A DNA stretch of 64,000 nucleotides, taken from Dehalococcoidales bacterium. GTDB lineage: Bacteria; Chloroflexota; Dehalococcoidia; Dehalococcoidales; Fen-1064. How positions within the stretch are numbered: the stretch's first letter is position 1; each line of letters begins with the position of its first letter. Positions 21,348-58,780 of the stretch are shown here, piece by piece. The notes beneath the pieces are model-generated. The model was not told where the DNA came from, made no database searches, and saw only the letters and a list, made by a program, of their open reading frames with translations. The stretch lies in the NCBI GenBank assembly GCA_020342155.1, contig CP070842.1:555930-619929 (forward strand), written 5' to 3'. The translations under genes and the position numbers were made by a program.

Positions 21348-22826
21348 TCAGGCACTGACCGGCAGGTAGACGGTGAAGGTAGAGCCTTTCCCTACTTCGC
21401 TTTCAACCTCTATCCTGCCGCCGTGGCGCTCGATAATACCGTGAGCTACGGATAGCCCCAGGCCCACCCCCCTGACTTCTTTCTTGGTATGGAAAAAGGG
21501 AGTGAACAACTCATCCATGTTCTCAGGGGCTATACCACATCCGGTATCCCGAAAGCTCACACGGATATCACCATCCTCATCCAGTGAGACGCTAACAGTA
21601 AGTTTGCCTCCTTCAGACATCGCCTCGATAGCATTGGCTGCCAGATTGACGAATACCTGTCGGAGCTGTTTGGAATCGGCCATTATGACCGGTAGCGGAG
21701 TTATCTCTTCTCTCGATACCTTAATACCCTTTATCTGGGCCTGGTGGTCAACCATCGACACGACCTGAGCAATAATGCTATTCACTTCCACTGGCTGTAA
21801 CACTGGCTCTGTCTGGGAGGCAAAATCAAGGAGGCTATGTACCAGCACAGAACAGTATGTGACAGCCTCTTCAATCTTTAGCAGGCTGGTGATGGTCTCA
21901 TCTTTATTAAACGATCCACGTTCCATTTTCTTACTGAGCAATTTGGTATACGTCAAGGCTCCAGCTAATGGATTGTTTATTTCATGGGCTATGGCAGACG
22001 ACAATTGACCAAGCGCATCCATCTTTTCGGTCTGGACTAACTGCCTCTGGGTACTTCGTAGTTGCTCGATGTAGCTATTCAGTTCTTCATTCAGTGACAG
22101 CAACTCCTCATAAGTAAGCCTTCTGGGAGTAATTGCTTGTGTCTCTTTTTGCGAGTCTATTGCCAGGGAATCCCGTCGGCTAGCCAGTTCAGCCAGCCTG
22201 CGCTGGATTGTGTCTTCGACCGTTTGCCCGAATTCACAGGTGGCACACTGAAAACCGTGGGTGCAGAGTCGATATGAGATAATACCCTCGGCGGCATAGT
22301 GGCAAAGCCCACTATTATCAGGAGGGTTATTGATTGTCCCTAGTGCTGTATCAGACTCTGTTATGCTCTCCTGTGTTATCTTCTCATGCATCATCCGGTC
22401 AAATTTACAGGTAATGCAATCGTGGTTACGTGTGCAGATTTGATGGGATACTACACCGAGCTTCATCCAGACACACTCTTCAGGCTTCACCCCACCACTG
22501 GCAGTTTCAGGATCAGCTTCTGACTTGGCCAACTCGTCTTTCGTTCTCTGTAGCCAGATACGTGTTTCGATATTACCGGGAGCAATTTTAAGAATGGCTT
22601 CGAATTCATCTTGAGCCTCTTGATAACGCCCCGTTTCAAAGTGGGCCTTACCCTGCTCATGGTGGGCCCGGATATTTTTTGGCACCATGGCTATGACCTG
22701 CTCATCAGACAGTTCGACTGTAGCCGTATTTTCAGCCGTTTCCTCGTCCATCACCTTATCTTCCCCTGTGGTCACAGCTTTCTTTCTCTCCACCTTAATT
22801 CTACTGTATTGATTATCAACCGCCAT
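21348..22826 (-). CDS. Sensor histidine kinase: TPR-like helix pair + 2x Cx12Cx5Cx2C module + HisKA + HATPase_c
   Basis: H-box SSAIAHEINNPL with N/G boxes in the C-terminus. Cys modules at aa 118-140 and 175-197. Confidence 0.85.
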   Translation of the reverse strand: MAVDNQYSRIKVERKKAVTTGEDKVMDEETAENTATVELSDEQVIAMVPKNIRAHHEQGKAHFETGRYQEAQDEFEAILKIAPGNIETRIWLQRTKDELAKSEADPETASGGVKPEECVWMKLGVVSHQICTRNHDCITCKFDRMMHEKITQESITESDTALGTINNPPDNSGLCHYAAEGIISYRLCTHGFQCATCEFGQTVEDTIQRRLAELASRRDSLAIDSQKETQAITPRRLTYEELLSLNEELNSYIEQLRSTQRQLVQTEKMDALGQLSSAIAHEINNPLAGALTYTKLLSKKMERGSFNKDETITSLLKIEEAVTYCSVLVHSLLDFASQTEPVLQPVEVNSIIAQVVSMVDHQAQIKGIKVSREEITPLPVIMADSKQLRQVFVNLAANAIEAMSEGGKLTVSVSLDEDGDIRVSFRDTGCGIAPENMDELFTPFFHTKKEVRGVGLGLSVAHGIIERHGGRIEVESEVGKGSTFTVYLPVSA

Positions 22827-23822: not shown

Positions 23823-24824
23823 CTACGTAGAAGCACCCTCCTCGATCAAGGCGTAGTGGGGTGGGAGCGCCCCGGTAGGACAAATAGCAAAGCACTCTTT
23901 ACAGTCAGCGCATTCTTTGCTGGCTATCTCTGGGAAAAACATGACCTCCCGTTCCGTTCCTCTACCAATAAAGCCTATGGCGTTTTTACCCTTCACCTCA
24001 GCACAGTAACGCACGCATAAACCACATAGAATACAGAAATTCGGTTCTACTTCGAACTTGGTTTCACTTGCCCCGCTTAGCTCGTAATTTCCTTTCGACT
24101 CCAACCCGGATATACCGTATCTCATTCCGTAATTCACCAGTGGTTGGACACCAGGGGCCCGAGCCCACATCAACTCCAACAGCATTTTACGGATTTTAAC
24201 TACCTGTTCCGATTCTGTCTTGACTATGAGTCCATCCTCAACAATGTAGACGCATGAAGTAACCAAACGCGATCTTTGCCCTCTGATTATCTCCACTATG
24301 CACAACCGACAGGCACCATAAGGTGACAGTTTCTCATGGTGACAGAGGGTAGGAATGTCAATTCCAATACTCTGTGCCGCCTCCAGAATGGTCGCCCCTT
24401 GTCGGACCTCAACCTCTCTGTCATCGATAACACAGGTAACGGTCTCCGGTCTTATCTCAACCTGGACCGGCCCCAGAGTCTGGCTAACCAGTTTCTCCAG
24501 ATCATTAAGGTCAAAGGGCTTGGGCAGATAATCAATAACCCCCTCTTTCATCGCCTCTACCGCTGTCTGGACAGAAGGGTAAGCAGTAATAATAATGCCA
24601 TTAAGCTGTGGCTGTTTCGCCCTGGCCTTCCTTAGTACCTCAAGCCCATCTGCTCCCGGCAACCTCAGGTCGAGGATGAGAAGTCCATAGTCCTGCTCCT
24701 CGATTGCTTTCAGCGCCTCGTCCCCTTGCGTGGCACTTTCCACCTGATAACCACCATCGGTTAGCCAGTCCTGGAGCGACTCTCTCATAATCGCTTCGTC
24801 TTCTACTATCAGAATCGGTTTCAT
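23823..24824 (-). CDS. REC domain fused to a NuoG/HydA-N-terminal-like [2Fe-2S] domain plus 2x[4Fe-4S] ferredoxin domain
   Basis: MKPILIVEDE...DLRLPGADG receiver; Cx10Cx2Cx15C (CHHEKLSPYGACRLC...C) 2Fe-2S pattern; CILCGLCVRYC and CADCKECFAICP motifs. GAGGAGG RBS. Confidence 0.8.
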   Translation of the reverse strand: MKPILIVEDEAIMRESLQDWLTDGGYQVESATQGDEALKAIEEQDYGLLILDLRLPGADGLEVLRKARAKQPQLNGIIITAYPSVQTAVEAMKEGVIDYLPKPFDLNDLEKLVSQTLGPVQVEIRPETVTCVIDDREVEVRQGATILEAAQSIGIDIPTLCHHEKLSPYGACRLCIVEIIRGQRSRLVTSCVYIVEDGLIVKTESEQVVKIRKMLLELMWARAPGVQPLVNYGMRYGISGLESKGNYELSGASETKFEVEPNFCILCGLCVRYCAEVKGKNAIGFIGRGTEREVMFFPEIASKECADCKECFAICPTGALPPHYALIEEGAST

Positions 24825-24853
24825 TCGTCTACCTCCTCTTATTTCTCCTCAGC

Positions 24854-26764
24854 TTATCCACGCACGACTTCAGTGCCTTGTGCAACAAATTCTGGTACTT
24901 CCACACCGGAAAGTACAGTAATGGCGCCAAAACGAGCGGGACAAACCTCAAGACAAGTCCCGCACTTGGTGCATTTCTCCTGGTCTATTATATGGATTAG
25001 ATTTTTCCCACCGTCGATAGCCCCTACCGGGCAATTCCTCAGACAAATCATGCACGCCTGACACTTCTCCGGCTCTATCCAGTAATTTATCAACGCCTTA
25101 CAGACACCGGCCGGGCACTGCTTCTTCATAATATGAGCTTCATACTCATCCCGGAAGTACCTGAGCGTGCTCAGCACTGGATTGCAGGCCGTCTGTCCCA
25201 GTGCGCAAAGTGCCGAGTCTCCAAGCACCTCCGGTATTTCGTCCAGCAGCTTAAAGTCTTCTTCGCTGCTTTCCCCTTCGCAAATTCTATTCAGCACCTT
25301 AAGCATCTGGTATATCCCCTCACGGCAGGGCAAACACTTACCACAAGACTCCCCGGCGAGGAAGTTAATAAAATACCTGGCCACATCCACCATGCAGGTG
25401 TCCTCATCCATGACGATCATGCCGCCCGAGCCCATCATAGAACCTACTTTAGTGAGCTCATCGAAATCTACGGGGAGGTTAAGGAACTTATCCGGGATAA
25501 CTCCCCCCGAGGGGCCACCGGTCTGGACTGCCTTGAACTTCTTTCCATCAGGAATTCCACCGCCGATATCGTAAATCACCTCTCGGAGTGTCATTCCCAT
25601 AGGCACTTCAACCAGCCCGGTATTTTTCACCTTGCCAACCAGGGAGAAAATCTTTGTGCCCTTACTGCCTTCGGTCCCGATGTTGGTAAACCATTCAGCA
25701 CCGTTGTTGATAATGAGAGGTACATTGGCCCAGGTCTCCACATTATTCAGATTACTGGGTCTATCCCAGATACCGCTAACCGCAGTGCGGATATATTTCG
25801 GTCTGGGTTCACCAACCCTGCCCTCTATTGCTGTCATTAAAGCACTGGATTCACCCGATACAAAGGCACCAGCACCTCGGTGTATTTTAACGTCAAAATT
25901 AAAACCGGAGCCGAGAATATCCGAACCCAGAAGACCGAGTTCTCGTGCTTGCTCTAGAGCAATATTTAGATTCCCCACAGCTAAGGGATATTCCTGCCGC
26001 ACATAGATGAACCCCTCATGTGAGCCAATAGCGTAGGCACCGATAATCAGGCCTTCCAGTACGCTGTGAGGATTACCCTCAAGAAGGCTCCTGTCCATAT
26101 AGGCCCCAGGGTCGCCTTCGTCAGCATTTACGATAACGTATTTTCTCTCGCCTGGTGCGTCGCGGGTGGTCTCCCACTTTCTTCCAGCCGGGAAACCGCC
26201 ACCCCCTCTGCCCCTTAGATTAGACTCTTTTACCTCTTCCATAACCTCTTCAGGTGTCATCTCTAAAAGGGCTTTTGCCAGGGCGGCATAGCCACCAAGC
26301 GTAATGTAGTCCTCTATATTCGTAGGGTCGATGAGCCTGTTATTGCCAAAAATAACCCGGCTCTGGTGTTTATAGAAGGGTATCTCGCTCTCATGCGCGA
26401 TCTTTTGACCGTCATCATCCTCATACAGCAGACGGTCAACTACCTTCTTTTCGACTAATGTTGTAGAAACAATCTCAGGGACATCATCCGACCTTACTCT
26501 CAGATAGCATATTTCTTCAGGAAAGATGACTACCAAGGTACCCTTCTCACAGAAACCATGGCACCCCGTCCGGCGGATATCCACCTTCTCTTGAAGTCCG
26601 TTACTCTGGATATTGGCAACAAAGGCCTCGGCAACCTTTTCACTGCCGTAAGCATGACATCCCGTACCTGAACAAATGGTTACACATGGTTTGTTTGGGT
26701 CTCTCTTGGCTAGTATTTCCTGTCTTAAGTTCTCCAGGTCAGCGGCTGAGTTTAATCTGCCCAT
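24854..26764 (-). CDS. NuoF/HydB-like NAD(H)-binding FMN Fe-S subunit (N-terminal thioredoxin-like 2Fe-2S, C-terminal 2x[4Fe-4S])
   Basis: GRGGGGFPAGRKW (FMN), GAGAFVSGESSAL (NADH), ESCGKCLPCREG (N3 cluster), CQACMICLRNCP and CTKCGTCLEVCP. Confidence 0.9.
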   Translation of the reverse strand: MGRLNSAADLENLRQEILAKRDPNKPCVTICSGTGCHAYGSEKVAEAFVANIQSNGLQEKVDIRRTGCHGFCEKGTLVVIFPEEICYLRVRSDDVPEIVSTTLVEKKVVDRLLYEDDDGQKIAHESEIPFYKHQSRVIFGNNRLIDPTNIEDYITLGGYAALAKALLEMTPEEVMEEVKESNLRGRGGGGFPAGRKWETTRDAPGERKYVIVNADEGDPGAYMDRSLLEGNPHSVLEGLIIGAYAIGSHEGFIYVRQEYPLAVGNLNIALEQARELGLLGSDILGSGFNFDVKIHRGAGAFVSGESSALMTAIEGRVGEPRPKYIRTAVSGIWDRPSNLNNVETWANVPLIINNGAEWFTNIGTEGSKGTKIFSLVGKVKNTGLVEVPMGMTLREVIYDIGGGIPDGKKFKAVQTGGPSGGVIPDKFLNLPVDFDELTKVGSMMGSGGMIVMDEDTCMVDVARYFINFLAGESCGKCLPCREGIYQMLKVLNRICEGESSEEDFKLLDEIPEVLGDSALCALGQTACNPVLSTLRYFRDEYEAHIMKKQCPAGVCKALINYWIEPEKCQACMICLRNCPVGAIDGGKNLIHIIDQEKCTKCGTCLEVCPARFGAITVLSGVEVPEFVAQGTEVVRG

Positions 26765-26835
26765 GACTCTCTCCTCTTTTTCAATCTCACTTAATAGACA
26801 CTCCGAACAGCGTTTGCTTTCCTATTCTCCATAGC

Positions 26836-27303
26836 CTATTCGCAAGTATCAGCAATCTCATCAAGTTCTTTCCTGGAAGGACTGCTATGATATTCCTCAT
26901 CGACTACCATCACCGGTCCCAGGGCACAGCAGCCAAGACAGTTTACTGTTTCCAGACTGAAGCGCATGTCATCCGAGGTCTCACCCGGTTTAATCTCTAA
27001 TTTCTCTGTTACTCTATCCAGGAGGCGAGGTGCACCACGCACCTGGCAGGCAGTCCCTAAACAGACCGATACCGAGTGTCGTCCTCTTGGTGTCAGACTG
27101 AAGGCTTTATAGAAAGTAGCTATATGATAGATTTGGCTCAAGGGAATTCCGAGCCTCTGGCTGGCCTGCATAAGGGCATCCCTGGGCAACCAGCGGTTTT
27201 CGTGCTGAATGTCGAGAAGCACCTGAATCAGAGAAGACTTGTCACCCTTATATTTGTCTATGATTTCATCGGTTTGAGCAACATCCTGGACCATCTTATT
27301 CAT
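26836..27303 (-). CDS. NuoE/HydC-like [2Fe-2S] subunit
   Basis: CLGTACQVRG...CLGCCALGPV pattern; 155 aa. Confidence 0.9.
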   Translation of the reverse strand: MNKMVQDVAQTDEIIDKYKGDKSSLIQVLLDIQHENRWLPRDALMQASQRLGIPLSQIYHIATFYKAFSLTPRGRHSVSVCLGTACQVRGAPRLLDRVTEKLEIKPGETSDDMRFSLETVNCLGCCALGPVMVVDEEYHSSPSRKELDEIADTCE

Positions 27304-27309: not shown

Positions 27310-28371
27310 TTAGTTTTCACCCCAGTAAGACCACCACCAACTAAGCTCTTTTTTATGTGAAGCCTCTTGTCGGGCGGCCAGCTCGACTGCTCTTTTTGCT
27401 AGCTTCTGCTGGAGGGCGTCGTCCATCATTTGTCCGAATTCACAGGTCTCGCACTGGTAGATACGGGAGCAGAGGCGGTAGGACACGTCATTCTTAAGAG
27501 CATAGCGACACAACCTCTGACTGCCGGGTAACGCCAGTAGTTTTTCCATGGCTGCATCAAGTTCAGAGGAGTCACCGCTAGCCAACTTGTCCTGCATCTC
27601 CTGGTCAAACTCACATGTCATGCAGTCGTAGTTGTTAGTGCAGACGCGATAAGACACCATCCCCATGCTCATCCAGACGCATTGTTTAGGTTTTTCTTCC
27701 CCTGGAGCCAATGCTTCAGTCTCAGGTTCGGCCAGCGTCCTTTTTATCTTCTGAATCCAGACCCTGTTCTCGATATTAGCCGGAGCAACTTCCAGGATAG
27801 CCTGAAATACCCTTAATGCCTCTATGTATCTGCCAGCTTCGAAGAGAGTCTTACCCTGCCTGAGGTGGCCTGGAACCTCCTCAGGAATAACAGCGATAAC
27901 CTCCTCGACCCGAACCTCCTCGACAACAACCTCCTCAACCTTGACCTCTTCTACCTTAACTGGCTCGTCTATAATCTCCTTAGTACCTGCCCGCGGTGTT
28001 ATTTCAATCTGTACCGGCCCGAGAGTCTCCCTGATTAGCTTCTCCATTTCATTAAGGTCAAAAGGCTTGGGCATATAATCAACAGCCCCTATTTTCATCG
28101 CCTCTACGGCTGTCTCAACTGAAGGATAGGCAGTAATGATGATTCCCTTGAGTTGGGGCCTTCTCTCTTTAGCTTCCCGCAATACCTCAAGCCCGTCTTT
28201 CCCCGGCAGCCTCAGGTCAAGAACGACAACACCGAAGTCATGTTCCTCGATAGTTTTCAGTGCTTCACTCCCCTCCTCTGCAGTTTCTACCTGATAGCCC
28301 CCATCCTTGAGCCAGTCTTTTAAAGACTCTCTCATAATTGCTTCGTCTTCTACTATCAATATCGGTTTCAT
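27310..28371 (-). CDS. REC domain + (K/V/R)VEEV repeat linker + TPR-like helix pair + 2x Cx12Cx5Cx2C module
   Basis: The receiver is nearly identical to that of 23823..24824. Cys modules at aa 238-260 and 295-317 (numbered from ORF start 28392). Start set at MKPILIVEDE (ATG 28369-28371, GGGGG 7 nt upstream). Confidence 0.75.
   Translation of the reverse strand: MKPILIVEDEAIMRESLKDWLKDGGYQVETAEEGSEALKTIEEHDFGVVVLDLRLPGKDGLEVLREAKERRPQLKGIIITAYPSVETAVEAMKIGAVDYMPKPFDLNEMEKLIRETLGPVQIEITPRAGTKEIIDEPVKVEEVKVEEVVVEEVRVEEVIAVIPEEVPGHLRQGKTLFEAGRYIEALRVFQAILEVAPANIENRVWIQKIKRTLAEPETEALAPGEEKPKQCVWMSMGMVSYRVCTNNYDCMTCEFDQEMQDKLASGDSSELDAAMEKLLALPGSQRLCRYALKNDVSYRLCSRIYQCETCEFGQMMDDALQQKLAKRAVELAARQEASHKKELSWWWSYWGEN
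27898..27957 (-). repeat. 4 x 15-nt in-frame tandem repeat encoding KVEEV-KVEEV-VVEEV-RVEEV
   Basis: Plus strand reads aacctcctcgac-type units with 15-nt periodicity. Confidence 0.8.
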
Positions 28372-28449
28372 CTTCTCGCCCCCTTCACTCATTTTTTAAC
28401 TCCTTAAGACAACTAGCTCGTCTATCTGATAACTCCCACACTATTATCA

Positions 28450-28466
28450 TGCAATTTTCTCGCCAA
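28450..28466 (-). promoter_or_regulatory. Sigma-54 (-24/-12) promoter: TTGGCGAGAAAATTGCA
   Basis: The reverse complement of 28450..28466 matches TGGCAC-N5-TTGCW at GG-N10-GC with TGGC and TTGCA intact (2 mismatches, AC to GA). It lies ~80 nt upstream of the REC/Cys-rich gene, with sigma-54 and a sigma-54 activator encoded immediately upstream. Confidence 0.65.
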
Positions 28467-28471
28467 AGAAT

Positions 28472-28500
28472 AAGGCTGCCCTGATATTTAGGGCAGCCTT
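28472..28500 (-). terminator. Perfect 11-bp inverted repeat (AAGGCTGCCCT-N7-AGGGCAGCCTT): terminator of the ntrC-like gene, or an activator site
   Basis: GC-rich hairpin 42 nt after the stop of 28542..29903, followed on the minus strand by AUUCUUU. It lies only 5 nt upstream of the -24 element. Confidence 0.5.
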
Positions 28501-28541
28501 CTCTACGATTCAAACAGATACTATCTATGTAAAGGAATCAT

Positions 28542-29903
28542 TCAGCGAGTGCCTATTTTTTTTACATCCAATCCATACGCCTTAATTTTATTATAGAGAG
28601 TCATTCTCGCGATTCCTAAGACCGCGGCAGCTTCACTGTAGTTGCCGTTGGTCTCAGTGAGTACATGCAGAATGTGGTTCTTCTCAACCTCATCAAGACT
28701 TTTGCCTGCCAGTGTTACCCTTACTAACTGCGAGTTTTCCTGAACCAGATCTCCCACCTCGATACAGGCATTTTTAGATAAAATGACCGCTCGCTCAATT
28801 GCGTTTTCTAGCTCTCTAACATTGCCAGGCCACTCATATTTTAGGAGAAAATCGGTAGCCTTTGGAGAATATTCGGTGATTTCCTTCTGGTTCTCCGTGG
28901 CAAACTTCTCCAGGAAGTACTGGGCTAAGAGAGGTATATCTTCTTTTCTCTCTCTTAATGGAGGCAGGTCAATCGAAACTACGTTCAAACGATAATAAAG
29001 GTCTTCACGAAATGTTTCATCGGTCACGGCCCTCTTAATATCTTTATTTGTCGCTGAAACAACCCTGACATCAGTCTTAACCAGTTCGTTACCACCAACC
29101 CTGGTGAATTCCTTCTCTTCCAGTACTCTCAACAGGTGACCCTGAATATTAGCACTCATGTCACCAATCTCATCCAGAAAGAGAGTGCCTTTATTAGCGA
29201 CCTCGAACTTACCCTTTTTTTGCGCATAAGCTCCGGTGAAGGACCCCTTTTCATGGCCAAACAGTTCACTCTCTAGAAGACTCTCAGGCAAGGCAACGCA
29301 ATTAACGGCGACAAATGGCTTACTCCGACGATGACTCTGGGAGTGAATAGAGCGGGCCACAAGTTCCTTGCCGGTGCCACTCTCACCTGTAATCAATACA
29401 GTAGCATTGCTCCTGGCTACAACCTTAATTATCTCAACTACCTGTTGCATCTTGGGACTTTTAGCGGTGATATTTTCAAATTCGTAACGCTCCTTTAGCT
29501 TCTTGTGCAAGGAAATGTTCTCCTCAACCAATCCCTGATGCTCAACCAATTTCTCAAGTAGAATCGCCAACCTTTCTGGGCAGAAAGGCTTCTCGATATA
29601 GTCATAGGCACCTTCTCTCATAGCAGAAATGGCGGTTGGGATGCTCGCGAAAGCGGTAATGATTATCACGTTAACAACCGGGTTCATCTCCTTTGCTTTC
29701 TTCATAAACTCTATCCCATCCATACCCGGCATCACGAGATCACTAATGATAATCCCTATCTGCTCCTCTTCCAGTATCTCCAGGGCTTGAGAGCCGCTCT
29801 CCGCAGTAAACACATGATAACCGGCATCATTTAGCCAGTCACAAAGCGATTCGCGAACAATAGCTTCATCGTCAACAACGAGGATATTAGCTTCTCTACT
29901 CAT
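28542..29903 (-). CDS. NtrC-family sigma-54-dependent response regulator (REC + AAA+ + Fis-type HTH)
   Basis: GESGTGKE Walker A, GSFTGA (GAFTGA-type sigma-54 contact loop), C-terminal HTH ...AAAVLGIARMTLYNKIK. Confidence 0.9.
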   Translation of the reverse strand: MSREANILVVDDEAIVRESLCDWLNDAGYHVFTAESGSQALEILEEEQIGIIISDLVMPGMDGIEFMKKAKEMNPVVNVIIITAFASIPTAISAMREGAYDYIEKPFCPERLAILLEKLVEHQGLVEENISLHKKLKERYEFENITAKSPKMQQVVEIIKVVARSNATVLITGESGTGKELVARSIHSQSHRRSKPFVAVNCVALPESLLESELFGHEKGSFTGAYAQKKGKFEVANKGTLFLDEIGDMSANIQGHLLRVLEEKEFTRVGGNELVKTDVRVVSATNKDIKRAVTDETFREDLYYRLNVVSIDLPPLRERKEDIPLLAQYFLEKFATENQKEITEYSPKATDFLLKYEWPGNVRELENAIERAVILSKNACIEVGDLVQENSQLVRVTLAGKSLDEVEKNHILHVLTETNGNYSEAAAVLGIARMTLYNKIKAYGLDVKKIGTR

Positions 29904-31836
29904 GGTAAGCCTCCAAGCGGACAGTAAAGGTAGTTCCCTCCCCCTCTTTACTATCTACCTCAATTCTTCCCTGATGTCGTTGGATAATTCCATAGGCCAC
30001 AGCTAGTCCTAAACCTACCCCTTTACCCTTCTCTTTTGTGGTAAAGAAGGGAGTAAAGAGCTTGTGCAGGTTTTCTTGAGAGATACCTGACCCTGTATCC
30101 TGAACCTCTATCTTAATCTGGTCGTCATTAACTACTGAGGTACGGAGGACTAACTCACCCCCCTTTGACATTGCTTGGATGGCATTCATGATAAGGTTTG
30201 TAAGAACCTGATGAAGCTGGTCAAAATCAGCCATGACTTTAGGCAAGTCAGGGCTATATTCTTTTCTCACCTCAACATTCTGCAGACCGGCCTGGTGACC
30301 AATGATGTTAAAAGCTCGCTCGATAACCTGGTTTATGTCTACCAGCCTGAGGGTTGGTGTTGACTGGCGAGCAAAATCCAAGAGATTACGAATTAACCTG
30401 GAACTACGGGTAAGCTCTGAGTCCATTTTTGTCAGGTAGTCCAGCGATTTTTCCTTACTGATGGTATTATTAGATATGTTTTTCTCCAGCAACTTGGTAT
30501 AGACAAGGACACCGGCCAGAGGATTATTGACCTCGTGAGCAATAGAGGCTGCCATCTGGCCTAAGGAGGTTAGCTTCTCGGCCTGGATAAGGTCTTCCTG
30601 AGTAGCCTCCAGTTTCTTGAGTAAATAAGGCCAACACATATTAATCTCTGCCAATTCCTGGCCGATGGCAACAGCCAACTCTCTACAGGAAGCGTAACCA
30701 CAAGCTCCACAATCCATCCGGTAACTGGGACTAACCCTGCCAATTTGCTCAAGGAGACCTCTGACTTCTTCTTCGCTGGGAGTTGGTAGGTAGATACTGC
30801 GCCCAGTAAATTTACGGTTGAGGTCAATCGTAGCGTAACGCTCGATGTCCTTCTCAGTCTGGGTGGGGTCTACATTACTCCGAGCGTATCTAGCAATAAG
30901 CTCCTTTCGACTAAAACCGCTTAGTTCATTATCAATAAACGGTCCATCAATACACCCGTGACAAAAATACAGATTAGCAAATCTAGCAGTGATGTCACCT
31001 TGAGCAAATTCCCCAAGAATCTTGACAACATATTCCCTACCGTGAACACTCATGACATCATTCTTCATTATGTCATCAGTTAATCCCATAACCTTAAGCA
31101 GGCCGCCTGATATGGCAAATAGCCGACCAAGCTTGGATATAGGGCCAGCAAACTGCTCGTCCTGCTCACTGCTCGGGACAATTCCTTTATCAGCAAACAT
31201 TTCCTTTAATTCCGTAAAGGTTAGCACAGCATCCACCATACCATCAGCATTCTTATCGGCGATTTCTGCTTTCTTAGCAACACACGGACCAATGTAGACC
31301 ACCTTAGCCTGCGTGTTGTGATATTGCTTGATTATTCTACCCATGGCAATTGTAGGTGAAACAATGGGTGCCAGATTACTGAGTAGTGAGGGATGGTACT
31401 TCTCGATGTAGGTTACTACCGCCGGGCAGTTAGATGAGATTATAGGCCCGTCTTTAACTTCGTCTAGTAGTTGGATGTATTCCCCACTGATTAGCTCGGC
31501 ACCGAAGGCTGCCTCCATCACATTGCTGAATCCCAGCTTCTTAAGAGAGGTTACAAATTGCCCAGGCTTACAATTGAGCAAGGCAGCTGGGAAGGAAGAG
31601 GAAACTACAGCTACCACATCAGGGTGGTTAGCCAATAGCTGCCGAACTAATTCGACATCGCTCTCCGCTTGCTTTGCCCCGGTAACACAGACACGTATAC
31701 AGTTGCCACAATCAATACAACGTTCCTTTATTACCTCAGCCAACCCTTCTCTTATCTTGATTGCCTTAGTCGGACAGTGACGTACACAGGCGTAGCACCC
31801 CTGACACTTCTCTCGGTCGGTATAGACAACGCTCAT
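29896..31836 (-). CDS. Histidine kinase with N-terminal 2x[4Fe-4S] + [FeFe]-hydrogenase H-domain-like sensor + Cx2Cx4Cx16C motif
   Basis: CQGCYACVRHCP and CIDCGNCIRVC; H-cluster-type motifs SSNCPAV, IGPCVAKKAE, FCHGCIDGP; CGACGYASC-x16-C; then SIAHEVNNPL H-box and an HATPase_c domain. Confidence 0.8.
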   Translation of the reverse strand: MSVVYTDREKCQGCYACVRHCPTKAIKIREGLAEVIKERCIDCGNCIRVCVTGAKQAESDVELVRQLLANHPDVVAVVSSSFPAALLNCKPGQFVTSLKKLGFSNVMEAAFGAELISGEYIQLLDEVKDGPIISSNCPAVVTYIEKYHPSLLSNLAPIVSPTIAMGRIIKQYHNTQAKVVYIGPCVAKKAEIADKNADGMVDAVLTFTELKEMFADKGIVPSSEQDEQFAGPISKLGRLFAISGGLLKVMGLTDDIMKNDVMSVHGREYVVKILGEFAQGDITARFANLYFCHGCIDGPFIDNELSGFSRKELIARYARSNVDPTQTEKDIERYATIDLNRKFTGRSIYLPTPSEEEVRGLLEQIGRVSPSYRMDCGACGYASCRELAVAIGQELAEINMCWPYLLKKLEATQEDLIQAEKLTSLGQMAASIAHEVNNPLAGVLVYTKLLEKNISNNTISKEKSLDYLTKMDSELTRSSRLIRNLLDFARQSTPTLRLVDINQVIERAFNIIGHQAGLQNVEVRKEYSPDLPKVMADFDQLHQVLTNLIMNAIQAMSKGGELVLRTSVVNDDQIKIEVQDTGSGISQENLHKLFTPFFTTKEKGKGVGLGLAVAYGIIQRHQGRIEVDSKEGEGTTFTVRLEAYHE

Positions 31837-32951
31837 TAGTCCCCCTCACTTTCATACCGAACATACTTACTCTTGCACCGAGAAGCAGGCAATCTCAGCT
31901 CTTTCCTCAGGTCGGCCACCGAGCGACGAGAGATGGTCACACCGAATTTTTCCTGCAGCTCAGTCTTTATCGCGTCATCTGAGGAAAGTCCTTCCTCGGT
32001 TTCAAGAAGTTGTTTGATTAGTTCTTTCTTAAACTTCTTCGATCTGGGGAAAAAGTGCTTAAGGGGAACCTCTGTACCCAAAGGTGTCTCTAGGCTTTTC
32101 CTGTTGATGGCACGACTAACAGAGCTGGGAGCAAGCCCAATTTTCTCAGCCAGTTCTTTCTGACTGAAGGGTAATAGAGATTTAGGATCACCACACTCCA
32201 GATATAACGCTTGCTTATCAACAATACCCTGCAGTATTTGACTTACCGTGTCCTTGCAGCTATTAACTGATTCTAGTCTCTTGAATAGCTGCTTAGCTTC
32301 ACTGACCTCAGTCTCAGTGAAAACCCCTCTTACCCTCAACTCCTCAAAGCTTCCGTAATCAATCCGATATCTTCCCCGGGCAAAGGGGGCGGATAAGTAT
32401 CCAATAGTAAAGCTATCCCCCCGTCTCTCTACCGAGGCAATTTTAGAATAGCGAATTTGCTCTGAACTGAAAGCGGAGGGATGATAGAACTCACTTAGAA
32501 TAGAGAAGTCATTGACAAGGTCATTTATCTCTCGGACTTCTGAAATACTCAGACCACATTCCTCAGCAATCTCTTCCAGGACCATCCCTGACTCAGGAAA
32601 CAAGAAGTAACGCTTGAATTTCTCCAGTCCCAACTTCTCTACTAGACGAACGATTCGCGCCTTGTTTTCTAGAAGGGATTCCACGTCAAGAGAGCCTTTG
32701 TCGGCTGTGGTTTCTTCTCTAAGCTGAAAATATTGGGATGAAATATCGGTCTTGGGAACTCTCTGGTAATGGATGAGTTTCTCTTCCTGATAAAGCCTCA
32801 CAAAGAGAGGAGTTTTTTCTAGCTCGATGACAAGCTGAATGAAGGTTTGCTCAGGCATTTCCAGCAACTTGGCCTGTTCTATGAGGAAGACTTGTTTTAA
32901 TTCCTGCCTGATTTGTTGGGATTGTCTTTGCTCTGTTATCATACTAGGCAT
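31836..32951 (-). CDS. rpoN: Short (371 aa) sigma-54 (RpoN) family sigma factor
   Basis: Gln-rich region I (EQRQSQQIRQELKQ...LLEMPEQTF..ELEKTPLF), HTH (LAPSSVSRAINRKSLETPLGTEVPLKHFF), and an RpoN-box-like GVTISRRSVADLRKELRLP. Overlaps the kinase start by 1 nt. Confidence 0.8.
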   Translation of the reverse strand: MPSMITEQRQSQQIRQELKQVFLIEQAKLLEMPEQTFIQLVIELEKTPLFVRLYQEEKLIHYQRVPKTDISSQYFQLREETTADKGSLDVESLLENKARIVRLVEKLGLEKFKRYFLFPESGMVLEEIAEECGLSISEVREINDLVNDFSILSEFYHPSAFSSEQIRYSKIASVERRGDSFTIGYLSAPFARGRYRIDYGSFEELRVRGVFTETEVSEAKQLFKRLESVNSCKDTVSQILQGIVDKQALYLECGDPKSLLPFSQKELAEKIGLAPSSVSRAINRKSLETPLGTEVPLKHFFPRSKKFKKELIKQLLETEEGLSSDDAIKTELQEKFGVTISRRSVADLRKELRLPASRCKSKYVRYESEGD

Positions 32952-32960
32952 TGTAAAAAT

Positions 32961-32989
32961 ATTTTACTACTCCTGTGATGTATTGTCAA
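32961..32989 (-). promoter_or_regulatory. Sigma-70 promoter TTGACA-N17-TAAAAT, only 9 nt upstream of the rpoN-like ATG (near-leaderless)
   Basis: The reverse complement gives TTGACA (32984..32989), a 17-nt spacer and TAAAAT (32961..32966). ATG at 32949..32951, no SD sequence. Confidence 0.45.
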
Positions 32990-34747: not shown

Positions 34748-34777
34748 GAATCAGGTCTAATAAAGGAGGTGAAATCA

Positions 34778-34969
34778 ATGGAGACTGTACTGACAATCCT
34801 GATGTTCCTGGGAATTTACGTCGTCTTTCCTCTACTCGTAGCCACTATCGTGTGCGGTATAGCCCTGTTGGCGAGACGTCGTGCTAGGAGTGTGGAGATA
34901 GCCAAACGTGCCAAGGCTCCGACTGCAGCCAAGAAGGTAGGGCTCGCTCATCATCCTGCTAAGACTTAG
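34778..34969 (+). CDS. Small (63 aa) single-TM protein with basic tail, tandem paralog A1
   Basis: AAGGAGG-N8-ATG. The first 31 codons differ from A2 by 8 synonymous and 1 nonsynonymous change. Confidence 0.7.
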   Translation: METVLTILMFLGIYVVFPLLVATIVCGIALLARRRARSVEIAKRAKAPTAAKKVGLAHHPAKT

Positions 34970-34999
34970 TACGAGATTATCAATAAGGAGATGAAATCA

Positions 35000-35182
35000 A
35001 TGGAGGCTGTACTGACAATCCTGATGTTCCTGGGAATCTACGTCGTCTTTCCCCTACTCGTGGCCACCATCGTATGTGGTATAGCTCTGCTGGGGAAGCG
35101 GCGTGCTACGAGGGCCGCAAGGGCTAAAGCCCCAGCAGCCAGAGAGGCCGAAGAACTCACCCATGAGCCTGCTAAGGCGTAG
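35000..35182 (+). CDS. Small (60 aa) single-TM protein with basic tail, tandem paralog A2
   Basis: AAGGAG-N9-ATG; METVLTILMFLGIYVVFPLLVATIVCGIALL core shared with A1. Confidence 0.7.
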   Translation: MEAVLTILMFLGIYVVFPLLVATIVCGIALLGKRRATRAARAKAPAAREAEELTHEPAKA

Positions 35183-35366: not shown

Positions 35367-36221
35367 ATGAGTGATAAAGCTATCCTTTTCAACACCACCA
35401 GATGCATTGCGTGTCGCGGTTGCCAGGTGGCCTGCAAGCAGTGGAATGAGACAGACGAGGTGATTCCCACTGAACAGAACAGCGTACGATCAGTAAACCG
35501 TGGCAGTTATGAAAATCCCCCGGACCTCTCACCAAAGACTTGGATGACGATTAAATTCATTGAGAAACCGCAGGGCGATTCCATAGAGTGGTTTTTCAAT
35601 CGTCGTAGCTGTATGCATTGTACTGAGGCTGCCTGTGTCGAGGTGTGCCCCTCTGGGGCTCTTTATCACAACGAAGATGGGTTTGTCACCTATGATAAAG
35701 ATAAATGTACAGGCTGTGGTTATTGTGAGCAATACTGCCCGTTTGATGTTCCTCGATTAGACACAAATATTGTCACAGGCGTGGGTAAAATGGACAAGTG
35801 TACTCTCTGCACGACCCCAAGCCTCAATCGTCTCTCGGCAGGTGAAGAACCTGCGTGTGTCAATACCTGTCCCACTCACGCTCTAGTCTTCGGTGATAGG
35901 GACGAGCTTATCTCCGAAGCTAAAACACTGGTCACCGGTCTGCAGACAACCGGCTCTAGGGTCTATCCCAAGGCAACGCTTTACGGAGAACAGGAACTCG
36001 GTGGCCTCCACGTTCTTTATGTTCTGACAGACTCGCCTGGAGTCTACGGCTTGCCAGAGAATCCTCAGTTCCCTATCGCGGCCACACTCCAGAGAGATGT
36101 CTTCCGTCCCCTTACTAAGGTGGTGTGGCTCATGGTCGCTGGTGGCCTGGCACTGAACGTCTTGATTGCCTGGTTCAGGCAGAGGCAACTTAGTGAGGAG
36201 AACTCTCATGGAAATGATTGA
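35367..36221 (+). CDS. fdnH: FdnH/HybA-like 4x[4Fe-4S] electron-transfer subunit with C-terminal TM anchor
   Basis: CIACRGCQVACKQWN, CMHCTEAACVEVCP, CTGCGYCEQYCP, CTLC...CVNTCP; C-terminal hydrophobic helix. Confidence 0.85.
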   Translation: MSDKAILFNTTRCIACRGCQVACKQWNETDEVIPTEQNSVRSVNRGSYENPPDLSPKTWMTIKFIEKPQGDSIEWFFNRRSCMHCTEAACVEVCPSGALYHNEDGFVTYDKDKCTGCGYCEQYCPFDVPRLDTNIVTGVGKMDKCTLCTTPSLNRLSAGEEPACVNTCPTHALVFGDRDELISEAKTLVTGLQTTGSRVYPKATLYGEQELGGLHVLYVLTDSPGVYGLPENPQFPIAATLQRDVFRPLTKVVWLMVAGGLALNVLIAWFRQRQLSEENSHGND

Positions 36222-36861
36222 ACGCTATACACGAGCAGCGAGATGGTTTCACTGGCTTATTGCCATCGTATTTTTTGAGATGGCACTGTCAGGGCTACTC
36301 ATCTTTCTCCCCTGGGTTCCTTCAGGCACGATAGGCATGTGGACTCGACTTATCCACCGTATTGGCGCAGTGTTTCTCGTTGGCGCTCCGGCAATATTCA
36401 TGCTTTTTGCCTGGCAACGTTCATGGGATTTCATTAAGGAAGCATTCACCTGGGGTAAAGAAGACCTCGAATGGCTGCGAGCCGCACCAGGCTACTATTT
36501 TGGCGGTGACCCGAGGATGATGCCACCCCAGGGTTATATTAACACCGGGATGAAGCTATACCGAATATCTATCATCCTCGGTGGTGGCGTATTTCTTATT
36601 ACGGGATTTATCATGACATTTCTCAGGGGAATTGTACCTCCGGCGGTCTTCCAGTGGTGCCTCGTCCTGCACGATGTCACCTTTATCGTGGCTATCGGTA
36701 TGTTCCTTTTGCACTTTCAACTCGGCGTTTTTCACCCTAGAATGGATGAGTCTCTCTTGTCTATGTTCGATGGCAAGGTCTCAGGTGTCTACGCCAAGTC
36801 CCACCATGGCAAGTGGTATGACGGAGTTAATAATAGAGATGACGATAACTCCTCCGAATAA
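36208..36861 (+). CDS. fdnI: FdnI-like di-heme cytochrome b membrane subunit
   Basis: RYTRAARWFHWLIAIVFF..LSGLLIF, 4 TM with conserved His. Start set at ATG 36208 (GAGGAG upstream), overlapping fdnH-like by 14 nt. Confidence 0.7.
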   Translation: MEMIERYTRAARWFHWLIAIVFFEMALSGLLIFLPWVPSGTIGMWTRLIHRIGAVFLVGAPAIFMLFAWQRSWDFIKEAFTWGKEDLEWLRAAPGYYFGGDPRMMPPQGYINTGMKLYRISIILGGGVFLITGFIMTFLRGIVPPAVFQWCLVLHDVTFIVAIGMFLLHFQLGVFHPRMDESLLSMFDGKVSGVYAKSHHGKWYDGVNNRDDDNSSE

Positions 36862-43468: not shown

Positions 43469-46400
43469 TTAAGCCCTCCTTATGTTGCATAGGAAGGTCT
43501 TGTACTCCGGGATGGTAGTGTTAGCATCGCCGACGTGCGGAGTAAGAATATTACCGCTATCGCCCTTAGCCATACCGCTGTATCCAAAGTGCCAGATTAC
43601 GCCGATGTGGTAAATGGTCTTGCCACCCACCGTCAGCGGCGGGAAGCGTTTGGTCACGATGGCCACGGCGCTAATCTCTCCCCGGGCAGTACTGACTGTC
43701 ACCATGTCTCCGTTCTCAATACCCTTGTCTGCGGCCAGTTCTTCACCCATCTCTACATACATATTGGGCATGAGCTCCACCAGCCAGGGGAGGTTCCTCG
43801 TCATGATGCCGGTCTGCCAGTGTTCGGTGCAGCGGTATGTGGTGCCCACATAAGGATACTGCTCAGGTGTTCCCTGCTGATTGCGATATGTGCCGATAAA
43901 GGAGCAGGGATTAATCTTGGTGCCCGACATCAGGTTTTCATCCAGAGGGCTTTCCCAGGGCTCATAAACCTCCGGCACTGGCCCCTCGGCCAGGCCGTAA
44001 CCCCAGAGACGTGCCACCCCTTCCGGTTTCATAATAAAGGGGAGGTACTTTGCCCCGTTCCCGGCTTGGTTGATTGGAGGCCAGCCCCCATCGGCGATAT
44101 CGCCCTGCCATTTCCCCTGACCGTACGAGATGACCGGGTGTTCACTGTCCCAGGGCACCCCATCAAGGTCAACCGAAGCCCGGTTATAGATAATACGTCG
44201 GTTGACCGGCCAGCACCAGGCCCAGTTGGAATACAGACCGATTTGCTGGGGATGCGTATCCACCGGGTCAGTTTTCTTGGCCTTATTGCCGTCTGTCTCG
44301 GTATACATGTTACAGTAGAGCCAGTTTCCCGAACTGGTAGTACCATCATCCTTGAGGGAGCCGAAGCTGGCCATCAACTGGCCGGTTGAGTCATAGCCGT
44401 TTATCTCTCTTGCTACCGCATCGGCCGTGATGTGGCTCCCATAGTCCCAGTCCAGCTCCACGACTGGCTTCGCCAGCGGACGGCTGTCCGCCTGATAAAG
44501 CTCTTTCAGCTTCAGCATAACCAGGTTCATAATCTCAAGGTCAGGCATTGCCTCTCCCGGAGCTTCCACCGCTTTATAGCGCCATTGTGCCCAGCGGCCG
44601 CTGTTAGTGATGCTCCCCTCCTTTTCGTAAGAGCAGGCCGCCGGGAGGATGAATACCTCGGTCTTGATATCAGCCGGTGCAACCCCAGGTCTCTTCCAGA
44701 ACTCGGCTGTCTCGTTCATCCATATATCAGCGGCGACCAGCCAGTCCAGGTTTGCCAGAGCAGCACGCGCCCCGTTAGAATTGGGGCCACCCGATGCCGG
44801 GTTCTGTCCCCAGTTCCAGAGTCCCTTAATTGTGCCCTGACCCATCGCCTCAATCATCCCGATGTGAGTGTAATTCAGACTGGGGTCACGTTTCGGCAGG
44901 TAGTGAAAACAGAAATCATTACTTTGGGTAGCCGCATTGCCGTACCAGGCTTTGAGCAGGCTCACCACATACTTCTTGTAGTTGCCCCACCAGTTGGCAC
45001 TGGTGTCTCCGGCGAGGCCCTGAGGCGTGATGGTTGACGGGCGAGCTCGTCTGAGGTAGTCCTCAAGGTCAGCGTCACCCTCTACCGGAGCCACCAGGTA
45101 CCCTGGCAAGATGTGGCTTAGCAGACACATGTCAGTCGACCCCTGGACATTGGAGGTGCCACGTAGAGCGTTGATACCGCCTCCAGAAACACCCATGTTG
45201 CCCAGCAGGAGCTGGAGTATGCCATAGGCCCTGATATTCTGGGTGCCATAGGTATGCTGGGTAGCCCCCATAGCATACATGATGGTACCAGCCTTACCTC
45301 GCTGTCCGGTAGCACTGTATGTCCGGCATATCTCCCGATAAACATCCTTGGGGGTGCCGGTAATATTACAGACGGTATCGATGTCGTAGCGGGAGAAGTG
45401 ATTCTTAAGCAGTTGGAAGACACAGTTTGGGTTTTCTAGGGTGGGGTCTGTGTCTGGAGTGGCGGTATCGGCATATTGCCAGCTCCCCCTAGATGCGGCT
45501 GTGTACTTGCCATCCTCCACTTCACCAAAAAGCCCATCATGAAAGACAAATTCCTGATTGACGATAAAGGAGGCATTGGTGTACTGGATGATATATTCCA
45601 TATTGTAGTTGGCAGGATTATCCGCAATGTCATCGAGTACGTATTTTATCATTCCACCGATGAAGGCGATGTCTGTACCCGACCTCAGAGGTGCATAGAT
45701 ATCGGCCTTAGATGATGTCCGGGTGAAACGCGGATCAACATGGATAAGCTTGGCCCCCCTGGCCATTGCTTCCGACACCCACTTGAAGGATATAGGGTGG
45801 TTCTCCGCGGCATTAGAGCCAATTATCATGATGCAGTCGGCATTTTGGATATCAATCCAGTGATTGGTCATGGCCCCTCTACCAAAACTCTCCGCCAAAC
45901 TGGCGACGGTAGAGGAGTGTCAGAGCCGGGCACAGTGCTCTAGATATACCACTCCCAGTGCCCGGTTCATCTTGGCAAGCAGATAACACTCTTCGTTGTC
46001 CAGTTCACCACCGCCAAGGCAAGCAATCGCGTCAGTCCGGCCCATTGCTTCATTCCAAGACGCGTCACGGGTAGACTTGACCCTCTGGGCGATGGTATTT
46101 ATCATCCAGCCCCAAGACTTCTCCTCCCAGTCAGCCGAGTTCGGTGCCCGGTACAGGGGCGTGGTTAGGCGGTACGTGTTAGGTTTGCCATTTACTTGGT
46201 GAATCTGGGCCATAGCCAGCCCCTTGGGGCAGAGTGACCCCTCGTTGACGGGATGGTCAGGGTTCCCCTCTATCTTGATAATGCCATCCTCATAGTCGGC
46301 TACAATGGCCCCGCAACCAACCGAGCAGTAGCAGCAGATGGTGGCTGTCTCTTTGACCCTTGTCTTTAGCTGCAATTCCTTAGGAGCAGCAATTACAATC

Positions 46401-46483
46401 CCTTTCGTGTCAAAGGTGAGCACCGCTGCGGCACCGATTCCCGCCCCCGAGAACTTCAGAAAGTCTCTACGGTTTAGTCTCAC
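43469..46483 (-). CDS. fdnG: Tat-exported, selenocysteine-containing formate-dehydrogenase-type molybdopterin subunit (FdnG-like); in-frame TGA at 45920..45922
   Basis: ORFs 45920..46483 and 43469..45898 are in the same frame (3015 nt). RRDFLK Tat motif and CCYCSVGCG [4Fe-4S] motif. Junction reads EHCARL-TGA-HSSTVASLAESFGRGAMTNHW, the conserved Sec/Cys active-site context. A hairpin follows the TGA. Confidence 0.85.
45876..45922 (-). promoter_or_regulatory. UGA(Sec) codon plus putative SECIS hairpin
   Basis: mRNA reads UGA-CACU-CCUCUACC-G-UCGCC-AGUUU-GGCGG-AGAGUUUU-GGUAGAGG. The 8-bp lower stem and 5-bp upper stem start 4 and 13 nt after the UGA. Confidence 0.55.
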
Positions 46484-46921: not shown

Positions 46922-46934
46922 CTTAATTGTTATC

Positions 46935-47058: not shown

Positions 47059-47131
47059 TCGCGATCGGGATATTCAGCCAAGTTTATAGTGCTGCCAAAC
47101 GCACTTTCACCACGTTATTTATATAATGCAA

Positions 47132-56867: not shown

Positions 56868-56944
56868 TGGTGGGCGGTAGAGGATTTGAACCTCTGGCCT
56901 CTGCGATGTCAACGCAACGCTCTAACCAACTGAGCTAACCGCCC
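56868..56944 (-). tRNA. tRNA-Val(GAC): tRNA-Val (anticodon GAC), CCA encoded
   Basis: Reverse complement folds as a cloverleaf: GGGCGGU/ACCGCCC acceptor, GCUC/GAGC D-stem, UUGCG-UUGACAU-CGCAG anticodon arm, AGAGG-UUCAAAU-CCUCU T-arm, ACCA end; 77 nt. Confidence 0.9.
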
Positions 56945-58267: not shown

Positions 58268-58780
58268 CTATGAATCCTTCCGTCGTCTCCTGCGGCGTCT
58301 CTGCTTCGGCACGAGCAGTACCGGCACACCGGCTTTCCGGGTAACCTCATCAGCAACGCTCCCCAGTATCGCCCGTTTCAGCCCGCCCTTACCACTGGTC
58401 ATCATCACAATCAGGTCGACTCTCTTTTCAGCGGAATACCGGACAATTGCCTTACCCGGATCTCCCATGGCGATGTGACAGGCCCCCTCTATGCCCTGCT
58501 TGTTAATTGCTCTGAGTTTCTGTTGGAGGTACTTTCTGGCACGCGTTACGTGGATACGGTCCTGAATCCGTGCCGATTGCACCGCTAGCCTGGCGGAAGT
58601 CGGGTCCACTCCTATTTCTGTAGCTGTTGAACTGGGGACAACAGTAGCCGGCGGTACTGCTCTCACAATAATCAGCTTTGCCTGGTACCGTTTGGCGATG
58701 TCACTTGCGTAGGGAAGCGCCTGTCCACTGAACCTTGAGCCATCCAAGGGTACCAAGATACGTTTAAACATCGTCTCCAA
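58268..58780 (-). CDS. Universal stress protein with poly-Arg C-terminal tail
   Basis: ILVPLDGS...DLIVMMTSGKGG...GSVADEV; C-terminus KQRRRRRRRKDS. Confidence 0.8.
   Translation of the reverse strand: METMFKRILVPLDGSRFSGQALPYASDIAKRYQAKLIIVRAVPPATVVPSSTATEIGVDPTSARLAVQSARIQDRIHVTRARKYLQQKLRAINKQGIEGACHIAMGDPGKAIVRYSAEKRVDLIVMMTSGKGGLKRAILGSVADEVTRKAGVPVLLVPKQRRRRRRRKDS

Follow-up and report, generated by a model that had tools for sequence, protein, structure and literature searches.

A compact sigma-54-family gene in a conserved Dehalococcoidia cassette with a sensor kinase, an activator and a -24/-12 promoter

Sigma-54 is usually treated as a uniform protein of ~450-500 aa that is encoded apart from its activators. 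In a 64,000-nt stretch of a Dehalococcoidales genome (GenBank assembly GCA_020342155.1, contig CP070842.1, positions 555,930 to 619,929 of the forward strand; hereafter the window), a gene for a 371-aa sigma-54-like protein directly precedes the genes for a sensor histidine kinase and a bacterial enhancer-binding protein (bEBP). This arrangement raises the question whether so short a protein is a working sigma factor and, if so, what it serves. Judging from the comparison of the locus with its relatives, the gene probably encodes a functional compact sigma-54-class factor, which would head a three-gene operon and read the adjacent -24/-12 promoter.

A first-pass annotation of the window had described the protein as ~100 aa shorter than typical RpoN. 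The size is genuine (371 aa against 477 aa in E. coli RpoN), and it does not result from a misplaced start. The minus-strand sequence upstream of the ATG is gctaaatataTTGACAatacatcacaggagtagTAAAATatttttacaATG. Of the seven codons that lead up to the start (gag tag taa aat att ttt aca), two are stops, which makes an N-terminal extension of the open reading frame (ORF) impossible; the sole alternative start is Met4. The other features read from the protein were recovered as well. Nine Gln occur among the first 40 aa, and both a helix-turn-helix (HTH) and the RpoN-box-like ISRRSVADLR are present, the HTH within the Pfam match to Sigma54_DBD (PF04552, aa 214-358, E=1e-22). The Sigma54_DBD family was matched in 129/129 family members scanned against Pfam. 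An identical protein, encoded on a 2.3-Mb contig of an NCBI Dehalococcoidales metagenome-assembled genome (MAG), is annotated “hypothetical protein,” and some family members that are hypothetical at NCBI bear the JGI labels “sigma-54 factor” or “sigma54-like.”

The compact form is widespread, as a clade of ~345-390-aa sigma-54-like proteins occurs in Dehalococcoidia and Elusimicrobiota MAGs. At E<=1e-30 the clade comprises at least 257 clusters of 50% identity, and nearly all of the best 150 of the 257 cluster representatives are 330-400 aa long with a full-length match. Among 90%-identity clusters there were 641 matches, and those listed are 340-404 aa in length. Conservation over the full length in hundreds of sequences rules out a pseudogene or a truncation. 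The mean column identity over 35 members is 72%, with conservation over the N-terminal 160 aa equal to that of the DNA-binding domain (DBD).

Of the protein, only the C-terminal half is picked up by curated models. A deep family alignment (136 diverse sequences, 26-58% identity to the query) was compared by hhalign with a canonical reference alignment of E. coli RpoN and Verrucomicrobiota RpoN, and aa 124-361 aligned to E. coli RpoN 231-474 (Prob 99.8, E=6e-29). A profile search against the PDB matched Aquifex sigmaN over aa 164-367 (E=4e-28). The only invariant residue across the 136 members is R280, which corresponds to E. coli R383 of the HTH that reads the -12 element. Within the RpoN box SRRSVADLR, residues R342, R343, V345, A346 and R349 correspond to E. 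coli R455, R456, V458, A459 and R462; K460 and Y461 of the E. coli box (ARRTVAKYR) are replaced by D and L in the sub-clade of the window protein.

The first-pass annotation also held that the protein keeps region I. In sub-profile hhalign comparisons, family aa 3-56 aligned colinearly with E. coli region I 4-53 (P=3.8e-4, Prob 36%), a match that outperformed the cross-controls; the same segment gave P=0.022 against the core-binding domain (CBD), and the family middle segment gave P=0.72 against region I. The colinear match weakly suggests that region I is retained, and it is not accompanied by a Pfam AID match. Assignment of the family N-terminus to the CBD, prompted by a coincidental “MEQAxLLEM” at the CBD start of two Verrucomicrobiota rpoN (L062, L063), was rejected, as the two P values favour region I. 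An AF2 model of the protein built from the 136-sequence alignment reached a pLDDT of 91.4 and a pTM of 0.86, superseding an earlier run on a shallow alignment (35 sequences, >60% identity; pLDDT 56). The best 29 PDB matches returned by Foldseek were all sigma54/SigN, with E down to 3e-10 over ~440 aligned columns. The TM-score to these structures is only ~0.3 because the PDB targets are in the extended, holoenzyme-bound form. The overall fold of the model is like that of solved sigma-54.

What the compact protein has lost was delimited by alignment. The interval between region I and the conserved beta segment spans ~209 residues in E. coli, where it consists of region II (~63 aa) and the CBD, ~137 in Aquifex and ~108 in the compact family. 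By this length accounting, region II is absent and ~45-65 CBD residues have no counterpart. In the hhalign match of aa 124-361, the alignment to the CBD is limited to its last ~27 aa; a weak alternative alignment places family aa 69-162 on E. coli 114-191 (P=0.015). The compact family has a single “LEEIAxxCGLxxxEV” HTH-like unit that aligns with either of two similar canonical CBD units, and the identity of the lost CBD sub-domain is therefore ambiguous.

The gene neighbourhood was compared in 57 loci from a scan of GTDB species representatives, all from Dehalococcoidia, Dehalococcoidales or Chloroflexota MAGs except for three otherwise-named bins and the two Verrucomicrobiota rpoN, which were drawn in by a chance peptide match. 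The earlier proposal of a sigma factor packaged with its bEBP, sensor and target promoter holds across these loci, where the sigma gene, the kinase, the bEBP, a terminator, the -24/-12 promoter and a response regulator (RR) gene travel together. The order sigma - kinase - bEBP - RR is kept in nearly all of the ~55 Dehalococcoidia loci with enough flank; among the variations, one locus is without the kinase and three have an insertion between kinase and bEBP. In three homologs of 64-83% identity, the sigma gene is followed by an Fe-hydrogenase-like kinase, a bEBP and a 340-360-aa RR, and the outer flanks are unrelated. In the window, base 31836 is common to the sigma stop and the kinase start (TAATG), the 1-nt overlap noted at first pass, which supports translational coupling of the sigma gene to the kinase gene, and the last 8 nt of the kinase gene are shared with the start of the bEBP gene.

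The kinase is a fusion of an H-cluster domain with a histidine kinase, matching PF02906 (Fe_hyd_lg_C, E=7e-50), PF00512 (HisKA) and PF02518 (HATPase_c). The H-cluster motifs SSNCP, GPCVAKK and FCHGCIDG were recognised by eye only, and cofactor binding is putative. The bEBP matches PF00072, PF00158 (E=4e-74) and PF02954, and its sigma54-contact loop is GSFTGA in the window and in 39 orthologs and GAFTGA in 13. The hydrogenase-like sensor is absent from the kinase in ~10 loci (L008, L013, L018, L020, L025, L029, L031, L042, L057 and L059). There the kinases match only the HisKA/HATPase part (query aa ~390-646), the sensor having been exchanged or lost and the remaining cassette kept. A single hint of mobility was seen in L003, where a large serine recombinase gene (Resolvase + Recombinase + Zn_ribbon_recom; 15759..17360, minus strand) lies directly after the cassette.

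The target promoter named in the first-pass annotation is present as TTGGCGAGAAAATTGCA (Table 1), the only such -24/-12 site in the 64 kb at <=1 mismatch. Among 47 non-redundant loci, 45 have TTGGCA-N6-TTGCA after the bEBP gene (consensus TTGGCAagaaAATTGCA), usually 52-63 nt before the RR start; tandem copies, ~55-65 nt apart, occur in five loci (L010, L025, L030, L045 and L059). The hairpin that precedes the promoter differs in sequence between orthologous loci yet stays paired (GGCTGCCCT/AGGGCAGCC, GGCTATCCT/AGGATAGCC and GCTACCC/GGGTAGC). Because these compensatory changes keep the pairing, the hairpin is taken as an RNA structure, that is, an intrinsic terminator, rather than a protein site. 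The inverted repeat TGTAAA-N27-TTTACA is found at the bEBP stop in 30/47 loci, with just 35 occurrences overall in 706 kb, and its left arm lies in the bEBP coding sequence; it is probably the enhancer of the bEBP.

Other promoter candidates were rejected. Further TGGC-N8-TGCW sites in the window occur at chance-level frequency, and the identical TGGCTTTCAATGTGCA sites at 47022 and 49563 belong to the two copies of a duplicated segment. This ~130-nt segment (46927-47060 / 49470-49601) is 82-86% identical between its two copies, which are 2.5 kb apart, and carries TGGCTTTCAATGTGCA as a fit to the loose -24/-12 pattern. In the flanks of the relatives, TGGCA-N6-TTGC matched 17 times against ~5 expected; only two of the extra sites were convincing, and both are cassette promoters in rearranged or partial loci.

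Table 1. Features of the compact sigma-54 locus; nucleotide positions are those of the window, amino acid positions those of the sigma protein.
Feature	Position	Strand	Detail
Compact sigma-54-family gene	31836..32951	-	371 aa ORF
Region-I-like segment	aa 1-56		sigma protein
Linker and strands	aa 57-89		sigma protein
Reduced helical core-binding region	aa ~90-160		sigma protein
Beta segment	aa 164-200		sigma protein
ELH-HTH (R280) + RpoN box (R342, R343, R349)	aa 211-358		sigma protein
Sigma70-type promoter TTGACA-N17-TAAAAT	32961..32989	-	-35 at 32989-32984, -10 at 32966-32961, 9 nt to ATG
Sensor histidine kinase: 2x[4Fe-4S] + [FeFe]-hydrogenase H-domain-like + FeS + HisKA + HATPase	29896..31836	-	Pfam
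NtrC-type bEBP: REC - AAA+ sigma54-interaction - Fis-type HTH	28542..29903	-	Pfam and NCBIfam scans
Inverted repeat TGTAAA-N27-TTTACA	28528..28566	-	spans bEBP stop codon; candidate enhancer (upstream activating sequence)
Intrinsic terminator of the sigma-kinase-bEBP operon	28463..28500	-	11-bp stem, 7-nt loop (hairpin 28500-28472), T tract into -24 element
Sigma54-type promoter TTGGCGAGAAAATTGCA (GG-N10-GC)	28450..28466	-	58 nt upstream of RR start codon
Response regulator, conserved target gene: REC + TPR-like region + two Cys-rich repeats	27310..28392	-	strong Shine-Dalgarno sequence
Genes downstream of RR: NuoE-like 2Fe-2S protein, NuoF-like flavoprotein, REC-Fer2-Fer4 protein	23823..27303	-	

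The gene had been called a paralog at first pass, a label that is probably wrong. The window and ~630 kb of flanks from ~55 genomes showed no canonical sigma-54 N-terminus or second rpoN, and no second bEBP or other clear -24/-12 site. Distant members of the short family in Elusimicrobiota MAGs (L065, L066 and L067) stand outside the cassette. In L065 the short sigma gene is followed by a bEBP and by type IX secretion (T9SS) and cell-surface genes, in L067 it comes two genes after dnaG-rpoD and is followed by secretin and Flp-pilus genes, and one Elusimicrobiota gene has no regulator nearby. These genes look like those of a general sigma-54, being outside the cassette and in one case near dnaG-rpoD. 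As a separate observation, L065 retains TTGACA-N17-TAAAAT ~55 nt upstream of the start.

Two accounts of the gene's standing in its genome were weighed. If it were a specialised paralog, an ordinary full-length rpoN elsewhere in the genome would carry the general duties and the short copy would serve its own cassette only. This would fit the tight linkage of the gene to one kinase/bEBP pair and one promoter in ~55 genomes, and Rhodobacter sphaeroides and Bradyrhizobium provide examples of dedicated rpoN paralogs. It is nevertheless rather unlikely, as the window and the flanks yielded no canonical N-terminus, the short proteins make up a deep clade (the 257 or more clusters at 50% identity), and in Elusimicrobiota the short form is a stand-alone gene, once near dnaG-rpoD as for a general sigma factor. 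Moreover, cultured Dehalococcoides, represented by D. ethenogenes 195, is listed without sigma-54 and with 0 EBPs (Francke et al. 2011 supplement, PMC3162934). In the same study, Elusimicrobium minutum is named among the diderms without both sigma-54 and EBPs (Francke et al. 2011, PMC3162934). On balance we favour, with reserve, the view that the compact protein is the sole sigma-54 of its genome. A more tentative extension of this view, plausible at somewhat less than even chances, is that this only sigma-54, with one bEBP, serves essentially one promoter and binds core with about half of the usual CBD and no region II. If this is true, the sigma factor, sensor, activator, enhancer, terminator and promoter would form a complete, portable regulon of ~5.5 kb, which could operate in lineages otherwise without sigma-54.

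As first described, TTGACA-N17-TAAAAT precedes the sigma gene, with the -10 element ending 9 nt before the ATG. With a score of 11/12, the site ranks first among promoter-like sites over 7.5 kb scanned, and the 64-kb window has two occurrences of TTGACA-N17-TAWAAT, compared with none in 100 shuffles. The other occurrence, a perfect TTGACA-N17-TATAAT at 58873..58901 (minus strand), lies ~92 nt upstream of the ORF 58268..58780. The reported lack of a Shine-Dalgarno (SD) sequence also stands: the closest AGGAG, whose end is 18 nt upstream of the ATG, is too far away to be usable, unlike at the kinase, bEBP, RR, NuoE-like and NuoF-like genes, which have GAGG/GGAGG 4-8 nt upstream. With the -10 element at -12 to -7, the transcription start site would be the A of ACA (predicted near 32954-32952), leaving a leader of 3 nt, or 0-3 nt with the usual variation. 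Thus, by its promoter layout, the sigma mRNA appears to be near-leaderless, with a predicted leader of 0-3 nt.

This layout was surveyed in 54 non-redundant loci with enough upstream sequence, under strict criteria (-35/-10 pair >=9/12, spacer 17-18, 9-10 nt before an in-frame start). It was found in 32/54 loci, with 9 nt to the start in 25 and 10 nt in 7. About five further loci have the same layout with the -10 variant TAAAAG/C, for a total of ~37/54 with the 9-10-nt spacing. In ~5 loci the promoter is kept and the translation start lies 13-15 nt further downstream, so that the same promoter is present in ~42/54 altogether. The consensus across loci is aAttttcTTGACAAtata...AtaGTAaAATaaTTaTACA-ATG. 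The promoter is retained at 38-45% protein identity (L049, L051-L054) despite differing upstream genes.

Several results count against a functional compact sigma-54 made from a near-leaderless mRNA, some concerning its expression and others its binding to core RNA polymerase (RNAP). In ~10/54 loci, which form one sub-clade, an SD sequence is present and such a promoter is absent. No terminator was detected in the 196-nt gap between the upstream membrane-protein gene (end 33148) and the sigma gene, so long-leader read-through transcripts are possible. As for the protein, PF04963 (CBD) and PF00309 (AID) gave no match to the window protein at E<=10, N-terminal fragments included; AID and CBD were not among the top Pfam families for the 129 family members at E<=1, and one relative gave E=0.12 for PF00309. 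Against NCBIfam TIGR02395, whose cut-off is 277.35 bits, the protein scored 88.5 bits, and the match was confined to the C-terminal part of the model. Core binding is not assured, because the ~45-65 aa without counterpart belong to the canonical core-RNAP-binding region.

The first group of results could be explained if the promoter-like site were not the main start and the gene were instead expressed by read-through from the membrane-protein gene, with SD-independent internal initiation on an A/U-rich leader. Both the intergenic region without a detected terminator and the relatives that use an SD sequence would be in line with this. We consider it improbable, since the hexamers, the 17-18-nt spacer and the 9-10-nt distance are kept in ~37/54 loci although the upstream genes differ, and the exact pattern is not expected by chance, as the shuffles show. 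Still weaker, and very improbable, is the view that the protein is a DNA-binding regulator derived from the DNA-binding half of sigma-54, a repressor or competitor at -24/-12 sites that does not bind core RNAP: curated models recognise the DNA-binding domain only and the shortened core-binding region cannot be recognised from its sequence, but the N-terminal 160 aa equal the DBD in conservation, the N-terminus is colinear with region I, a confident full-length model matches sigma54 structures, and the adjacent gene is always one for a bEBP with an intact GAFTGA-type loop, a type of bEBP for which we know of no target besides sigma-54 region I.

Under the favoured reading, a functional compact sigma-54, the cassette may work as follows. 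The sigma factor would retain region I to respond to the activator, the HTH to read the -12 element and the RpoN box to read the -24 element, with region II gone and the CBD reduced. Housekeeping RNAP would transcribe the sigma, kinase and bEBP genes from the conserved promoter as a near-leaderless mRNA. As the -10 box is 9 nt from the ATG, the leader would be 0-3 nt long and the sigma factor would be translated without an SD; the kinase would be made by coupling at TAATG together with its own GAGG, and the bEBP by coupling together with its own SD. Operon transcription would end at the intrinsic hairpin terminator. RNAP with the compact sigma factor would sit on TTGGCA-N6-TTGCA as a closed complex until the kinase, sensing H2 or redox state via its H-cluster-like domain, phosphorylates the bEBP. 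The bEBP would then assemble at the inverted repeat, its GSFTGA loops would remodel region I, and ATP hydrolysis would open the promoter. The conserved output would be the REC-TPR-Cys-rich RR and, in this genome, also the NuoE/NuoF-like and REC-Fer2-Fer4 genes.

The genes downstream of the RR (NuoE/NuoF-like and REC-Fer2-Fer4) are present in only some relatives. The RR itself has at its C-terminus (aa ~230-345) two repeats of C-x13-C-x5-C-x2-CEF with no Pfam family match. A 492-aa TPR-HisKA-HATPase kinase in the same cluster (21348..22826, minus strand) shares this region at 43% identity over ~200 aa. The Cys-rich region may be an undescribed metal or Fe-S sensory domain. The protein encoded at 23823..24824 (minus strand) joins a receiver to the 2Fe-2S/4Fe-4S module that HydA/NuoG typically have at the N-terminus, and the H-cluster-like domain is found instead in the kinase at 29896..31836 (minus strand). 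Hydrogenase pieces appear to be distributed over two signalling proteins beside the NuoE/NuoF-like genes.

Elsewhere in the window, 43469..46483 (minus strand) comprises two same-frame ORFs split by one TGA (45920-45922; ...LEHCARL*HSSTVASLAESFGRGAMTNHW), the first with a twin-arginine translocation (TAT) signal and Molybdop_Fe4S4 and the second with Molybdopterin and Molydop_binding. Together they look like a selenocysteine-containing catalytic subunit of the formate-dehydrogenase type. An FdhB-like 4Fe-4S protein (35367..36221) and a cytochrome b (36166..36861) are also encoded. Two small tandem ORFs on the plus strand, 34769..34969 (66 aa) and 34991..35182 (63 aa), have near-identical hydrophobic N-termini, MKSME(T/A)VLTILMFLGIYVVFPLLVATIVCGIALL..., and Lys/Arg/Ala-rich tails. 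At the Rfam gathering threshold, the window gave a single match, a tRNA gene (56871..56944, minus strand).

The locus is of interest for a naturally minimised sigma-54, for a whole sigma-54 circuit that is co-inherited, and for a deeply conserved promoter of the leaderless type. The 345-390-aa clade amounts to a natural deletion experiment, which would show the parts needed for core binding and for the activator response. Because the NCBI pipeline misses the compact proteins as “hypothetical protein,” sigma-54 regulation would be under-counted in Dehalococcoidia and Elusimicrobiota. The cassette suggests how subsurface organisms couple H2/redox sensing to gene expression, and, as an unusual complete circuit in one block, it would be a ready-made orthogonal switch for synthetic biology. 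In the literature on sigma-54 in Dehalococcoidia, on leaderless Dehalococcoides genes and on sensory hydrogenases with sigma-54, no description of the clade or the cassette was found.

Compared with canonical sigma-54 (E. coli/Klebsiella RpoN, 477 aa; Aquifex aeolicus sigmaN, 398 aa), the window protein shares the C-terminal 240 aa, the HTH Arg and the RpoN-box Args, a Gln/Leu-rich region-I-like N-terminus, a textbook GG-N10-GC promoter and an AAA+ bEBP with a GAFTGA-type loop. It differs in having no acidic region II and a CBD that is ~45-65 aa shorter even than that of Aquifex, and it falls below the curated rpoN thresholds. Whereas canonical rpoN lies in an lptB-rpoN-hpf-ptsN neighbourhood, the window gene heads a kinase/bEBP operon with a predicted leaderless-type mRNA. 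The cassette is proposed to work like a sigma-54/NtrBC circuit. A minimal circuit of one kinase, one bEBP, sigma-54 and one principal promoter is found in the Hk2-Rrp2-RpoN-RpoS pathway of Borrelia burgdorferi, where the product is itself a regulator. The circuit logic is alike; however, the Borrelia rpoN has an ordinary architecture and is unlinked to hk2-rrp2, whereas the window cassette is contiguous in all its parts, the target promoter among them, and these are inherited together.

Multiple specialised rpoN paralogs are found in Rhodobacter sphaeroides (RpoN1-4) and Bradyrhizobium (RpoN1/2). There, too, the placement of a sigma-54 gene beside its client genes or activators implies functional dedication. 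Those paralogs are full-length and coexist with other copies, whereas the window protein belongs to a separate compact clade and no other copy is known. Another such case is Bradyrhizobium DOA9, with the specialised copies RpoNc and RpoNp (PMC13207237). The self-contained, co-transcribed sigma and sensor module with an adjacent target promoter resembles the cassettes of extracytoplasmic function (ECF) sigma and anti-sigma factors. However, the ECF factors are group 4 of sigma70, controlled by sequestration and usually autoregulated, whereas ATP-driven activation is proposed for the window cassette and its sigma operon has a housekeeping-type promoter. Finally, the regulators of the sensory [FeFe]-hydrogenase type (HydS/Hfs-type, HydDB group C) have an H-cluster-domain sensor protein beside NuoE/NuoF-like (HydC/HydB-like) genes. 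The window shows the same juxtaposition, but its H-domain is fused to a HisKA/HATPase kinase, which would feed a sigma-54 activator, with the sigma factor encoded in the same operon.

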